Source: Candidatus Pacearchaeota archaeon (GTDB lineage Archaea; Nanobdellota; Nanobdellia; Pacearchaeales; GW2011-AR1). Taken from it: 64,000 bases of DNA. A program made the translations under genes and the position numbers. Location of the stretch: the NCBI GenBank assembly GCA_041659445.1, contig JBAZYG010000001.1, forward strand, positions 155,068 through 219,067. The letters run 5' to 3'. The notes under the pieces were generated by a model that was not told the origin of the DNA, did not search any database, and worked only from the letters and a program-made list of their open reading frames with translations. Below are positions 57,956-64,000 of the stretch, in pieces. Positions within the stretch are counted from its first letter, which is position 1. Each line of letters begins with the position of its first letter.

Positions 57956-58258
57956 ATGGACGCATATCAAATAATTGAAAAGGCAAAAAGAACTGGCAAA
58001 ATTGAAAAAGGAACAAACGAAGTTACAAAAGCTATTGAGAGAGGAACTGCTAAGTTTGTTGCTTATGCAAAAGATGTTGATCCTAAAGAAATCATAGCTC
58101 ATTTATCAGCACTTTGCAAGGAAAAAAATATTCCTTATTCTGAAGTCGATAGTAAGCAAAAATTAGGAATTGCTGTTGGAATTCAAGTCGTAGCATCTTC
58201 AGTAGCAGTTATCGAGGCTGGAGAAGCAGATAAAGATATTGCTAGTTTAAAGAAATAA
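57956..58258 (+). CDS. rpl7ae: Ribosomal protein L7Ae (K-turn binding; also an sRNP/RNase P component).
   Basis: [76 protein letters not shown] is near-collinear with the canonical archaeal L7Ae. Confidence 0.9.
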
Positions 58259-58270
58259 TAAAATATTAAA

Positions 58271-58561
58271 ATGGCGAAAAATCAGGGAAAAAAAGATACA
58301 AAGCAGCAAAGTACGAAGGGAAGTGACAAAATTTTAGGTGAAGCTGTTCCTGCTGTTGTTCAAGAAATTTTAGGGAGAACTGGTTTCAGAGGAGAAATTA
58401 CTCAAATTAAAGTTTTGGTTCAAGAAGGTAGAGATAAAGGACGAGCAATGAGAAGAAATATTAAAGGTCCTGTGAGAATTGGTGATGTATTAATATTAAG
58501 AGAAACTGAAATTGAAGCAAGAAAAATTAAATCAAGTATTACAAAGGGAAGTTATAGTTAA
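58271..58561 (+). CDS. rps28e: Ribosomal protein S28e.
   Basis: …[59 protein letters not shown]… is the S28e signature. Confidence 0.9.
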
Positions 58562-58562
58562 A

Positions 58563-58772
58563 ATGGGAATTCATGGAATTATTTTAGAGCATGTTCTTAA
58601 TGGATTAAATATTTTAGAAAGTGGAAGTATGAAAGAAGTTATTATTAATACTAATATTGATGATAAATGGGATGCAAATAATTTAGCTGGAAAGATTAGT
58701 AATTATAATGTTAAAGTAGAAGAAAGTATGGGTTATTATCTTTTAAAAATTTCAAAGAAGGAGAAAAAATAA
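58563..58772 (+). CDS. Hypothetical small protein (69 aa from the Met directly after the S28e stop; the ORF track gives 58512-58772).
   Basis: MGIHGIILEHVLNGLNILESGSMKEV… Starts 1 nt after the rps28e stop. Stop 1 nt before the next ORF. Confidence 0.35.
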   Translation: MGIHGIILEHVLNGLNILESGSMKEVIINTNIDDKWDANNLAGKISNYNVKVEESMGYYLLKISKKEKK

Positions 58773-58773
58773 A

Positions 58774-59148
58774 ATGCAATTTAATATTGAGCTTCCAGAG
58801 GATGAAAGAGGAAATATTGATTTTAATAAATTGGAAAGAGAATTATCTAAAAATTTATCTAGCAATCCTCAAGAAGATGTTTGTGTTTACAAAACTAAAG
58901 ATGAAAAAATTGTGAATTTTATTAAAGATTATTTTATAAATTCTTATGATTTTAGTGTTGCAATTTCTTATAAAAAAGATGGAGATTATTTAATTAAATT
59001 TTCAACAGATGTTGTTTTAGAAAAAACAGGACTTGAAAAAACAAATGAAGCAAAATTTTTAGATTATATGAACAGATTAAATTTAGAACTAGGAAGTGCA
59101 GATCCTTTTGTACCATTGTATCGATTTAACGGAGGTTTAAATGCCTAA
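58774..59148 (+). CDS. Hypothetical protein (124 aa), translationally coupled to rpl24e.
   Basis: Its stop overlaps the rpl24e start (ATGCCTAA). Confidence 0.45.
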   Translation: MQFNIELPEDERGNIDFNKLERELSKNLSSNPQEDVCVYKTKDEKIVNFIKDYFINSYDFSVAISYKKDGDYLIKFSTDVVLEKTGLEKTNEAKFLDYMNRLNLELGSADPFVPLYRFNGGLNA

Positions 59149-59314
59149 ATGTGTTTATTGTGGAAAAACTTATGAATTTCCGAGAGGATTAACTTTAGTT
59201 GGAAAAGATGGAAATATAAATTATTTATGTTCTTCAAAATGCCGAAAAAACATGGCTATGAAAAGGCGTAAAGTCCGTTGGATATCTAAAAAGAAAAAAG
59301 TAAAGATTGAATAA
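59141..59314 (+). CDS. rpl24e: Ribosomal protein L24e (57 aa), not in the ORF track.
   Basis: MPKCVYCGKTYEFPRGLTLVGKDGNINYLCSSKCRKNMAMKRRKVRWISKKKKVKIE. C4 zinc-ribbon pattern typical of L24e. Confidence 0.85.
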   Translation: MPKCVYCGKTYEFPRGLTLVGKDGNINYLCSSKCRKNMAMKRRKVRWISKKKKVKIE

Positions 59315-59356
59315 AATCACGAAAATCTTTAAATAGTCTTTTAAATAGATTTTTTA

Positions 59357-59842
59357 ATGCCAAAAAGAAATTTGTTGATAGTAGTTGAAAATAAATCTAA
59401 ATATAATTCTTTAGAAGAAGCAACTTTATCTGGTTATTTTAATGTTGATGTTGTTAGTGATTTTGTTGAGGCTAATGAAAAATTAAAAAATCTTTATGAT
59501 ACAATTTTTTTAGAATTGCAAGGTATTGCATTACTTTCTCCTGAAAAGATTCCTCCTTTTGTTCCTGAAACTATCTATCAAGAATATAATAAAGACCCAA
59601 TTAATTTTGTAGGTAAATATTTATTAGAAAAAATAAGAAATGATAAATGTTCTTTGAATAAAAATACTCCTATTATAGTTCGTGTTGATGGTAGTCCAGA
59701 AAATCGACGTGATAAAGCCAAGTTTATAAGTATGGGTGCAACAAATGTAATTTACATTCCTTCTGAACTTGATGAACTTGAAGAATTTATTAAACCATTT
59801 GATATTTCTTTAGAGAGTCTTAAATCAAAATATTCTAAGTGA
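59357..59842 (+). CDS. Hypothetical protein with a degenerate CheY-like receiver pattern (161 aa). Occupies the position where ndk usually follows rpl24e.
   Basis: LLIVVENKSKYNSLEEATLSGYFNVDVVSDFVEANEKLKNLYDTIFLEL resembles a receiver domain, but the acidic pocket reads E-N and the phospho-acceptor position reads E (FLEL). No NDK motifs. Confidence 0.4.
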   Translation: MPKRNLLIVVENKSKYNSLEEATLSGYFNVDVVSDFVEANEKLKNLYDTIFLELQGIALLSPEKIPPFVPETIYQEYNKDPINFVGKYLLEKIRNDKCSLNKNTPIIVRVDGSPENRRDKAKFISMGATNVIYIPSELDELEEFIKPFDISLESLKSKYSK

Positions 59843-60055
59843 AATTAAATTTTATCTTATAAGTCCTTAATTTTTTATTTATATTTTTTTATTTCAAAAA
59901 TAAGCTCTTTTTTACATGTATTTTTGTTTTATCGTCGATAAAACCCCAGAAAACTTTATAAAGCAAGTTGTTTTCTTTTTAATATAATTAGGCAGTTTCT
60001 GTCCTAAAAATTACAGAAAATGATAAAAAATAGGGGAAAATATTTCAAATTTTAA

Positions 60056-61945
<1,890 letters not shown>

Positions 61946-62031
61946 GTTGTTTACCTCCATGGTCCTCGATAAAACATCTGCGGATTTAAATTTAAAAAAT
62001 TTAAATAAGGAGGCAAACTTAGAAATATAAA

Positions 62032-62340
62032 ATGAAAAAAGCAAAATTATCAACGCCTACATGGATTTTAGAAGGTTATGATAGCCTCGAGGCTTACAAC
62101 AAAGCCAAAGGCCTTAACAAAAAATCAAAAAAATCTGGTAAAACTTACAAGATAAAAATATGTCCAAAATGTAAAAGTGATAATGTTGGAGTTGTGTTAA
62201 TTGAAAGTAGTGAAGAAACAGGTGGAGGAAAAGAATGGGAATGTAGAAAATGCAAATGGAAAGGAAAAAGTCCTGTTGATAAAGAATTAACAGAAGATGA
62301 ATTTTTAGAGCATTTAGATAAACAAGAGGGAAAGAAATAA
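62032..62340 (+). CDS. Small Lys-rich zinc-ribbon protein (102 aa).
   Basis: CPKCKSD…(23 aa)…CRKCKWKG. Acidic C-terminus. Lies between gyrB and gyrA. Confidence 0.45.
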   Translation: MKKAKLSTPTWILEGYDSLEAYNKAKGLNKKSKKSGKTYKIKICPKCKSDNVGVVLIESSEETGGGKEWECRKCKWKGKSPVDKELTEDEFLEHLDKQEGKK

Positions 62341-62341
62341 A

Positions 62342-62755
62342 ATGGAAAAAATTCAAAAAAAGAAAACTTTAGAAATGAATGTCTACATAGCTGGATATCG
62401 AATAACTTTTGATGGGGTCGCTAAAGACTATAAAGGAATGTATTGTTCAGAATTTGATGGAAAATATTTAAATATGGTTCGTTGTAATGTTGAAAAATTT
62501 CCAACAATTGCTTTGTCTTTATTAGAAAATTCAGTGAAACCAAATCTTGTTAATGAAGTAATAATAAATTTTCCTGAAGGTGATAAAAATTTTACTTTGT
62601 CAATGGACGGATATTTTGGAAGACCTGCAGTTCTTTATGGTTCCCAAAGATTGAAGTCTGTTACTAAAAAAGATAGAAAAACGCTCACAAAAATTATTAA
62701 CCAAATTAATTCATTTGAAGTAAAAGGAAAGAAAATCGCTTTAAGAACAAATTAA
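62342..62755 (+). CDS. Hypothetical protein (137 aa).
   Basis: Starts 2 nt after the previous stop. Same operon as gyrB/gyrA. Confidence 0.45.
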   Translation: MEKIQKKKTLEMNVYIAGYRITFDGVAKDYKGMYCSEFDGKYLNMVRCNVEKFPTIALSLLENSVKPNLVNEVIINFPEGDKNFTLSMDGYFGRPAVLYGSQRLKSVTKKDRKTLTKIINQINSFEVKGKKIALRTN

Positions 62756-62756
62756 A

Positions 62757-63014
62757 ATGCCAGAAGAAAATAATGAAGAAGAAAACGATGAAGTTGAAGT
62801 TATAGAATTTAGCTTGAGCTTAGATGAAATAAACGAACTTATGGAAAAACTAGATTTTTTAAGGAGAACAAAAACAGAAATTTCATTTTCAGTCGACGAG
62901 TATAACGAACTTTTGATACATTATTTTGATGAAAATGCAGAAGATGAAGATTTAGATTTAGATGAGAAAGAAGAAGATTCTGAGGAAGACGAGGAATTCG
63001 AGGGAGAATATTAA
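62757..63014 (+). CDS. Hyper-acidic small protein (85 aa, roughly 40% D/E).
   Basis: MPEENNEEENDEVEVIEF…DENAEDEDLDLDEKEEDSEEDEEFEGEY. Its stop abuts the gyrA start. Confidence 0.45.
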   Translation: MPEENNEEENDEVEVIEFSLSLDEINELMEKLDFLRRTKTEISFSVDEYNELLIHYFDENAEDEDLDLDEKEEDSEEDEEFEGEY

Positions 63015-64000
63015 ATGACAGAAAATAAAGAAGAAAAAAATCTTGTGAATGAAAAAGGTGTTTTGAATAGCGAAGTCTCTGAAGAAATGAAAAAATCTTA
63101 TTTGGATTATGCAATGAGTGTTATTGTTTCTAGAGCTATTCCTGCAATTGAAGATGGTTTGAAACCTGTTCAGAGAAGAATTTTATTTTCAATGAATTTA
63201 ATGGGATTAAAACCAAACACACAAACAAAAAAATCAGCTAGAATCGTCGGAGATGTTATAGGTAAATATCATCCACACGGAGATACTGCTGTTTATGATG
63301 CAATGGTTCGTATGGCTCAAGATTTTTCTTTGAGATATCCTTTAGTTTATGGGCAAGGTAATTTTGGTTCTATTGACGGAGATCCTCCTGCTGCTTATCG
63401 TTATACTGAGGCTAAGCTTGAAGAGATTTCAGAAGAATTATTACAAGACATTGACAAAGAAACAGTTGAATTTATTCCTAATTTTGATAATTCACTCAAA
63501 GAGCCAGTTTTATTACCTGGAAAACTTCCAACTTTACTTTTGAATGGTGCATCTGGTATTGCCGTCGGTATGGCTACAAATATTCCTCCTCATAATTTAA
63601 CAGAAGTTTGTGATGCAATAATTAGTTATGTTGATAATCCAGAAATTTCGTTGAAAGAATTAACTGGAATTATTCAAGGTCCAGATTTTCCAACAGGTGG
63701 GATTATTCAAGGAGATATGAATGAATTATATTCGACAGGTAGAGGAAAATTAGTTGTCAGAGGAAGAGTAACTACAGAAGAAAGCAAGAAAAAAGATTTG
63801 GTTGTTATTACAGAAATTCCATACATGGTCAACAAAGCTACTTTAATTGAGCAAATTGCTGGTTTAGTTCGTGATAAAAAAATAAAAGATGTTTCTGATT
63901 TAAGAGACGAATCTAGTAAAGGAAAAATTAGAATTGTTTTGGAATTAAGAAAAGGAACTGATGCAAAATTTGCAATAAATGCATTATACAAATATACAAG
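63015..64000 (+). CDS. gyrA: DNA gyrase subunit A, N-terminal ~328 aa (continues beyond the window). Not in the ORF track because no stop lies within the window.
   Basis: …[29 protein letters not shown]…[41 protein letters not shown]…AYRYTEAKL… is the canonical GyrA N-terminus with catalytic-Tyr region (AYRYTE). Confidence 0.9.

Follow-up and report, generated by a model that had tools for sequence, protein, structure and literature searches.

A narrow family of predicted zinc-ribbon proteins encoded between gyrB and gyrA in DPANN archaea: a candidate gyrase-associated factor and its optional hyper-acidic companion

In a metagenome-assembled genome of Candidatus Pacearchaeota (DPANN archaea), three small open reading frames (ORFs) lie between gyrB and gyrA, the genes of the two DNA gyrase subunits, and the locus raises the question of whether their products are partners of gyrase or only share its operon. 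The stretch analysed, hereafter the window, comprises 64,000 nucleotides (nt) (assembly GCA_041659445.1, contig JBAZYG010000001.1, positions 155,068 to 219,067). An earlier sequence-only reading of this window had regarded the three ORFs as one inserted unit, possibly with a regulatory role for gyrase. The genes concerned are the following:

60062..61945, + strand: gyrB, 627 amino acids (aa), intein-free, with the Pfam domains HATPase_c, DNA_gyraseB, Toprim and DNA_gyraseB_C
62032..62340, + strand: ORF1, 102-aa predicted C4 zinc-ribbon protein, the constant element of the operon
62342..62755, + strand: ORF2, 137-aa basic protein, a rare lineage-specific insertion between ORF1 and ORF3
62757..63014, + strand: ORF3, 85-aa hyper-acidic protein, putative companion of ORF1
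63015..64000, + strand: 5' part of gyrA, which runs off the window (843 aa in full on the source contig)

The presence of three small ORFs between the gyrase genes, all on the + strand, was thus confirmed, as was the observation that the last stop codon (that of ORF3) directly precedes the gyrA ATG at 63015. The further claim that all gaps measure 2 nt or less holds for ORF1–ORF2 (1 nt), ORF2–ORF3 (1 nt) and ORF3–gyrA (0 nt) but fails for gyrB–ORF1, where the gap is 86 nt. No terminator-like site was found in the interval 59300-64000. The products are named 'hypothetical protein WC812_01410/01415/01420' by NCBI, and the same three proteins are predicted on three independent assemblies. Because each of them has homologues (at least 249 clusters for ORF1, about 30 for ORF3 and one for ORF2), the ORFs are, on this comparative evidence, real genes and not chance ORFs.

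The relationship between ORF1 and gyrase was analysed by a scan of relatives based on the ORF1 family alignment (one genome per GTDB species), which returned 118 relatives. The best 80 loci, labelled Pacearchaeota, Woesearchaeota or Nanoarchaeota, were retained, and the neighbours of ORF1 in them were scored by tblastn with the window proteins. A gyrB gene was detected 5' of ORF1 in 76 of these 80 loci, and in all 54 loci that could be tested (at least 3 kilobases (kb) of upstream sequence); a gyrA gene was detected 3' of ORF1 in 74 of the 80, and in 63 of the 64 testable loci (at least 3.2 kb of downstream sequence). Four distant and shorter relatives, namely P0157 (locus L088), P0155 (L089), P0171 (L172) and the ribbon protein of L093, likewise have their genes between gyrB and gyrA, whose ends they abut or overlap. 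The distant members do not have the N-terminal motif TPxWILEGYDS of ORF1 and keep the ribbon and the acidic helix alone; the ribbon protein of L093 has a basic C-terminus, and the GyrA of this locus is 62% identical to that of the window.

A gyrA-seeded scan of metagenome contigs served as a control and provided 80 loci, mostly with 56–62% GyrA identity and taken as other lineages. Among these, the ORF1 profile matched only two DPANN-like loci, L091 (75% identical), in which both ORF1 and ORF3 are present, and L093. No ribbon gene was found in the more than 20 control loci where gyrB abuts gyrA (15–200 nt). The premise of the sequence-only reading that gyrB and gyrA are normally adjacent is therefore right for some of the controls only, since many have no nearby gyrB; both gyrBA operons and split arrangements have also been noted (PMC9348778). 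The comparison of the gyrB–gyrA interval among related genomes, which that reading had proposed as a check, gave a different answer for each gene: ORF1 is near-invariable, ORF3 occurs in 32 of the 80 loci (family hidden Markov model) and ORF2 in none. In sum, ORF1 belongs to a narrow, strongly constrained zinc-ribbon family that is almost always encoded between gyrB and gyrA.

The ORF1 protein (isoelectric point (pI) 9.2) is composed of a basic N-terminal half with a conserved motif (TPxWILEGYDS..Y.KAKG) and a Lys-rich linker, of a CPxC-x23-CxxC ribbon (CPKC-x23-CRKC in the window), and of a C-terminal acidic amphipathic helix (ELTEDEF..YLD). The assignment to the C4 zinc ribbons made from the sequence alone was upheld: the protein has two CxxC knuckles, and the four cysteines (C44, C47, C71 and C74) are invariant, together with W11, W69, W76 and several other positions, in alignments of 24 and 38 sequences. 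The AlphaFold2 (AF2) model places strands around both knuckles, with a predicted local distance difference test (pLDDT) score of 63. The homologues found by a word-indexed search all have about 100 aa and share 55–74% identity; one of them is labelled 'C4-type Zn-finger protein' by the Joint Genome Institute (JGI). The family is narrow, because an exhaustive HMMER search with the ORF1 profile retrieved only 66 clusters among 1.84 billion representatives, all but one of them with a length of 35–178 aa. No fusion of ORF1 to GyrA or GyrB was found among these 66 clusters or among the open frames of more than 160 aa in the loci. Over the 80 loci, the median identity to the window proteins is 58% for ORF1, 75% for GyrB and 78% for GyrA. 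Judging from these alignments, ORF1 is strongly constrained and is, for the window, the founding member of an unannotated family of small putative C4 zinc-ribbon proteins.

Searches in Pfam, NCBIfam, PHROGs and PADLOC gave no match at or near threshold for ORF1, ORF2 or ORF3. The sole low value was obtained for ORF1 against phrog_1244, a family of unknown function (E=1.7e-5, in the ribbon region), and ORF1 also has many sub-threshold matches to ribbon families, such as the RPA12 C-ribbon (E=0.03). An Elf1-like factor was considered and rejected: Zn_ribbon_Elf1 was matched with E=0.03 and 14.8 bits, against a cut-off of 29.8, and 7 of the 38 members had any match to it. The resemblance of the N-terminal motif to a fatty acid-binding protein (3pp6, E=0.17) was treated as chance. 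No relatives of ORF1 or ORF3 are present in IMG/VR, on which ground a viral origin of these two genes was discarded.

Several variants of the ribbon genes were noticed among the loci. A second subtype, with a basic and not an acidic C-terminus, is encoded at L093:4687-4953, L171:267-554, L171:551-799, L057:5762-5902 and L085:5834-5995. Some loci harbour a tandem pair of ribbon genes, and paralogous ribbons thus lie upstream of gyrA. The 66-cluster search also returned a 432-aa protein (P0188) made up of four tandem related zinc ribbons, each followed by an acidic helix, and of a C-terminal DUF5655.

The second element of interest is ORF3, a protein with a pI of 4.05 and a net charge of -32, in which Asp and Glu account for 44% of the residues (roughly 40% according to the sequence-only reading). 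By comparison, the other ORFs of at least 100 aa in the window have a median Asp/Glu content of 12% and a maximum of 18%. Clustering of all ORFs located between ORF1 and gyrA yielded an ORF3 family of 30 members. Its conserved core comprises about 45 aa (VEVIEFSL..EINEL.EKL..L..TK..ISF.VDE.NELLIHY for ORF3 of the window, VEVxEFSLxxEEIxELIxKLxxLKxTKxxIxFEIDDENELLINYEE as family consensus) and is flanked by Asp/Glu-rich tails that differ in length. The acidity is uniform in this family (median of 40% Asp/Glu, net charge from -13 to -44). In none of 30 cases does the gene lie upstream of ORF1, and in 25 of the 30 it is the next gene downstream. Moreover, the 178-aa protein P0138 is a natural fusion of ORF1 and ORF3 into one protein; its gene lies between the gyrB 3' end and gyrA, with tRNA_bind and cytidylyltransferase passengers beside it. 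This fusion, together with the adjacency of the two genes, argues for a joint function of ORF1 and ORF3.

The situation of ORF2 (pI 9.6) is quite different. Only one homologous cluster (P0002) was found among 5.8 billion proteins, sharing 37% identity and conserved blocks; its gene, too, lies after an ORF1 homologue and before gyrA, but no gyrB precedes them. The AF2 model of ORF2, built from a two-sequence alignment, has a pLDDT of 72.6 and a predicted template modelling score (pTM) of 0.68. Foldseek searches with this model gave insignificant matches to YeaZ, acetate kinase, Prp8 RNase H, EndoV and RuvC-type (RNase H-like-fold) structures, with a best E-value of 0.15 in PDB and 0.029 in BFVD and a probability of at most 0.23 for the RNase H type. 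In light of this single homologue and of its absence from the 80 related loci, ORF2 was rejected as a conserved member of a module; it behaves like a rare passenger that, in the window, splits the usual ORF1–ORF3 pair. The notion of a single inserted unit of three ORFs is consequently kept for ORF1 with the recurrent ORF3, but not for ORF2, which occurs in one other lineage only. Other passengers (CTP_transf_like, HD, HAD, tRNA_bind and NUDIX) flank ORF1 on one side or the other in some genomes and are missing from others, while ORF1 stays.

More generally, the gyrB–gyrA interval in loci L007-L087 is a cargo site that accommodates zero to about five unrelated, tightly packed genes, among them a Cys-rich 80-aa family and a nucleoside-deoxyribosyltransferase-like family.

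On balance, ORF1, together with ORF3 where it is present, probably constitutes a gyrase-associated small-protein module of Pacearchaeota/Woesearchaeota-type DPANN archaea, a reading based on synteny and on one fusion. ORF1 would be made together with GyrB and GyrA (co-transcription and translational coupling are inferred, as are a physical contact with gyrase and the way in which any effect would go) and would act either upon the gyrase holoenzyme or jointly with it, as a partner dedicated to this enzyme: an accessory subunit, an assembly factor or a regulator of activity. As ORF1 would be obligatorily co-expressed with an essential enzyme, from the operon of that enzyme, it is more readily seen as a stoichiometric partner or tuner than as a stress-induced inhibitor of the YacG type. 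ORF3 would be an optional companion, most likely binding ORF1, and its polyanionic, DNA-like tails could act as competitors of DNA or cover basic surfaces; ORF2 would not belong to the module and would be a rare passenger between the two. The regulatory link to gyrase put forward in the sequence-only reading is thereby retained for ORF1 and ORF3, which synteny and the fusion make plausible gyrase-associated factors, but dropped for ORF2.

Several observations weigh against such a module. The gyrB–gyrA interval tolerates unrelated passengers, and position alone is therefore weak evidence. The 80 loci were chosen via ORF1, and so they indicate that ORF1 implies a gyrase context and not that every gyrase operon of the clade has ORF1. 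Indeed, the DPANN-like locus L094 (GyrA 67% identical) has a 230-nt gyrB–gyrA gap with no ribbon gene and no ORF1 remnant, because of which ORF1 is not universal. P0169, the most distant match examined, is encoded among small ORFs without gyrase, and the contigs of L090 and L171 are too short for their gyrase context to be judged. The AF2 model of ORF1 is moderate and gave no informative fold match. Finally, a mirror-tree analysis with partial Mantel tests (25 taxa, ribosomal proteins as species proxy) gave no signal, but it had no power, as its GyrA–GyrB positive control failed too (r=0.26, partial r=0.13, p=0.2; the radiation is star-like).

A stronger version of the module hypothesis can be put forward only tentatively. 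According to it, the gyrase of Pacearchaeota/Woesearchaeota-type DPANN archaea might not be a simple A2B2 enzyme and might contain a lineage-specific third component, namely the zinc-ribbon protein, which in many species would be joined by a hyper-acidic partner. The binding site of this third component would lie close to the junction of the GyrB C-terminus and the GyrA N-terminus, and the component would tune DNA binding or supercoiling and would have evolved after the horizontal acquisition of gyrase.

The alternative that survives best, although it is rather unlikely, is that ORF1, with or without ORF3, is a small nucleic-acid- or protein-binding factor whose task has nothing to do with gyrase (it might act in transcription or translation, for instance) and which was trapped early in an essential and highly expressed operon next to L7Ae, S28e and L24e and was kept there by inertia. 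Upstream of gyrB, the window indeed contains:

57956..59314, + strand: ribosomal protein block, with L7Ae at 57956-58258, S28e at 58271-58561 and L24e at 59141-59314 (Pfam families, source contig)

Ribosomal protein genes precede the operon in many loci: the block is also found 5' of gyrB in 26 of the 80 related loci, and among the loci of the distant relatives, both L088 and L089 have L7Ae and S28e ahead of gyrB, with L24e present there in L088 alone. The presence of clearly unrelated HAD, HD, NUDIX, cytidylyltransferase and tRNA-binding genes in the same interval, the operon of L094, which does without ORF1, and the weak sub-threshold ribbon matches of ORF1 to Elf1, RPA12/TFIIS-type and IS1595/InsA types are all compatible with a hitch-hiking gene. 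However, these passengers vary from genome to genome and settle on either side of ORF1, whereas the position of ORF1 is constant even though its N-terminal motif is lost or gained. In addition, gyrase is present in all contexts examined for members with a profile E-value below 1e-10, and no member of the family occurs in IMG/VR or in the 78 control gyrase loci that represent other lineages. For these reasons, a gyrase-associated module is preferred to a hitch-hiker.

A second alternative, considered improbable, is that ORF1 and ORF3 correspond to a split and miniaturised ZPR1-like module (a zinc ribbon followed by a beta-rich domain), which might serve as a folding or assembly chaperone for gyrase by analogy with eukaryotic ZPR1, which serves eEF1A. 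The profile of the ORF3 family matches mouse ZPR1 (2qkd) with E=0.0097, and the E-value improves to 3.6e-4 with a concatenated ORF1+ORF3 profile, in which weak pieces, the second CxxC and then a helix-strand segment, align in order; these pieces are nevertheless insignificant when taken singly (i-Evalues from 8.8 to 1000), and the scores may be inflated by acidic composition. One of 31 ORF3 homologues touches the Pfam model jr-ZPR1, with E=0.016 and far below threshold, but no member reaches the Pfam ZPR1 models, and the 25 families most often matched by 16 ORF1+ORF3 concatenates do not include a ZPR1 model. The JGI label 'C4-type Zn-finger protein' and the ORF1–ORF3 fusion in P0138 would fit a ZPR1-like architecture; yet the fusion protein does not reach the Pfam ZPR1 models either and, alone, has no match in PDB, and the ORF3 core, with its roughly 45 aa, falls far short of a ZPR1 jelly-roll.

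Lastly, ORF3 is hardly a split-off acidic N-terminal extension of GyrA, joined to it by readthrough or separated by a recent nonsense mutation: the two genes are in the same frame with a single TAA between them, the stop abutting the ATG, and the GyrA proteins of L003-L006 have a 40-aa acidic N-terminal extension and no separate ORF3, but the ORF3 core defines a family of its own. About 30 genomes encode this core as an ORF apart from gyrA, the frame differs among them, and other genes often intervene before gyrA; the core is joined to ORF1 and not to GyrA in P0138, and it is lacking from the acidic GyrA extensions of relatives (no ORF3 match in L003). Moreover, the N-terminal extensions of GyrA range from acidic to poly-Lys, and the gyrA start in the window agrees with the N-terminus of the GyrA family, so that ORF3 was rejected as a GyrA N-terminus or readthrough product.

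The genes that surround the module deserve a brief description. The enzyme of the window looks like a true gyrase, because the canonical GyrA box is present in GyrA (QKRGGKG, near residue 531 of 843), as is an acidic C-terminal tail; GyrA matches Pfam DNA_topoisoIV (E=6.7e-120), and both subunits have the expected domains, namely GHKL, transducer, TOPRIM and C-terminal domains in GyrB and a topoisomerase IV-type N-terminal domain and beta-pinwheel repeats in GyrA. Inteins are frequent in relatives, after positions about 429 and about 500 of gyrB and after about 131 of gyrA (window protein numbering). Split intein-type hits were obtained in about 20 loci, such as L012:4106-5368 (gyrB), L045:1543-2847 (gyrA), L021, L024, L040, L048, L056, L062, L077-L079 and L083; two of these inteins were confirmed by Pfam Intein_splicing and LAGLIDADG_3, and both gyrase genes of the window are intein-free. 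On the metagenome contig L172 (108-1991), gyrB is split into two ORFs (391 aa and 227 aa) that align end to end with the window GyrB by tblastn, which may reflect a frameshift, an assembly error or a pseudogene. The GyrA proteins of L003, L013, L050, L056, L064, L067, L084, L085 and L094 bear variable low-complexity N-terminal extensions, mostly acidic (up to 40 aa in L003) and poly-lysine in L056, none of which is related to the ORF3 core.

The 86-nt gap between gyrB and ORF1 is framed by a direct repeat:

61922..61944, + strand: 23-nt direct repeat, copy 1, the true gyrB 3' end, encoding ...KEANLDI*
62007..62029, + strand: 23-nt direct repeat, copy 2, 83% identical, encoding KEANLEI and a stop, one nucleotide before the ORF1 ATG

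The two copies are 85 nt apart, copy 2 is out of frame with gyrB, and its differences from copy 1 are mostly synonymous or conservative. Copy 2 is probably the relic of an older, tight gyrB–ORF1 junction that was shifted by a duplication or insertion of 85 nt; in 19 related loci, no more than 30 nt separate the end of gyrB from the start of ORF1. An AT-rich, TATA-like run is seen in the gap at about 61985-62006, as is an ACCUCC/GGAGG pairing whose significance is doubtful (fold z-score -1.8), and a search of this gap against Rfam gave no match. Further upstream, two lineage-specific ORFs flank L24e before gyrB, at 58774-59148 (124 aa) and 59357-59842 (161 aa). No significant family match was obtained for either of them; for the 161-aa ORF, which the 80 related loci lack almost entirely, there is only a faint response-regulator-like match.

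Archaea acquired gyrase horizontally, and the adaptation of this bacterial-type enzyme in the recipient lineages is an open question (PMC9348778). In this context, ORF1 is a concrete and cheaply testable candidate for an archaeal gyrase-associated factor, kept in the gyrBA operon across a whole archaeal radiation. If ORF1 binds gyrase, a function could be attributed to two families now annotated as 'hypothetical protein' only, and a new regulatory surface would be revealed on a major drug target, as was the case with YacG. The behaviour of the gyrB–gyrA interval as a cargo site in reduced genomes is also a warning against deducing function from adjacency alone, as illustrated by ORF2.

Some features of this locus recall known systems. 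In Escherichia coli, GyrA has a cis-acting acidic C-terminal tail, and the GyrA of the window also ends in an acidic segment. The weak likeness of ORF1 and ORF3 to ZPR1 would lie in a C4 ribbon and, after it, a helix-strand element of similar local sequence (EIDELI.KL..LK.....F.L.IDD), collinear in the ORF1–ORF3 fusion; they differ from ZPR1 in that the Pfam models are unmatched, the jelly-roll is missing or cut to about 45 aa and the module is distributed over two genes, and ZPR1 has no known topoisomerase link. The order and common orientation of gyrB and gyrA are those of canonical gyrBA operons (PMC9348778), but the control loci have 15–200 nt and no ribbon gene between the two, whereas a constant zinc-ribbon gene and a variable cargo are found here. 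Neither zinc nor an accessory gene of DPANN gyrBA operons, nor any other archaeal gyrase-associated factor, is mentioned in a 2022 survey of archaeal gyrases (PMC9348778) or in a 2024 review of archaeal DNA topology (PMC11894792), and literature searches for such a gyrB–gyrA accessory gene found nothing. As far as these comparisons indicate, ORF1 and ORF3 both fall outside the gyrase modulator families described so far.

ORF3 can be compared with DNA-mimic or polyanionic gyrase modulators, such as the phage peptide Igy and MfpA/Qnr (PMC10886550). Like them, it is small and extremely acidic, and it is encoded with gyrase; from its charge alone, we infer that it might act as a DNA mimic. It differs from these proteins by having no pentapeptide repeats and no match to a known mimic family, by carrying its charge mostly in variable and probably disordered tails and not on a rigid DNA-shaped surface, and by its tie to ORF1 through adjacency and fusion, which known mimics do not have.

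The closest parallel to ORF1 is offered by YacG, an endogenous gyrase inhibitor of E. coli (PMC2490753, PMC4083091). YacG is a 65-aa protein with a treble-clef/FCS zinc finger, whose Trp40 is invariant and whose C-terminal tail docks on the GyrB TOPRIM and on GyrA (PMC4083091, PMC10886550); it occurs in proteobacteria, is induced by stress and has its gene at a distance from those of gyrase (PMC10886550). ORF1, in contrast, is archaeal and encoded inside the gyrBA operon. It has a classical CPxC-x23-CxxC ribbon instead of a treble-clef/FCS finger, and its invariant tryptophans are located in the N-terminal motif and the ribbon, whereas the critical Trp40 and Trp59 of YacG are in a disordered C-terminal tail; the last 24 residues of ORF1 form a predicted acidic helix without Trp. 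The YacG family (PF03884) was absent from scans of the window ORF1 at E-values up to 1 and 10 and is not among the 25 most frequent of the 51 families matched by 38 ORF1 homologues. The analogy with YacG drawn in the sequence-only reading therefore does not extend to family membership, and ORF1 was rejected as a YacG homologue on account of the missing PF03884 match, the other finger type and the lack of a Trp-bearing C-terminal tail. The likeness between the two proteins lies elsewhere: both are small (65 aa for YacG, 102 aa for ORF1) and zinc-binding (as predicted for ORF1), with four Cys ligands and invariant tryptophans, and ORF1 is tied to gyrase by genomic evidence. The working logic could thus be shared by analogy, with a small zinc domain that docks and flanking segments that reach functional sites.

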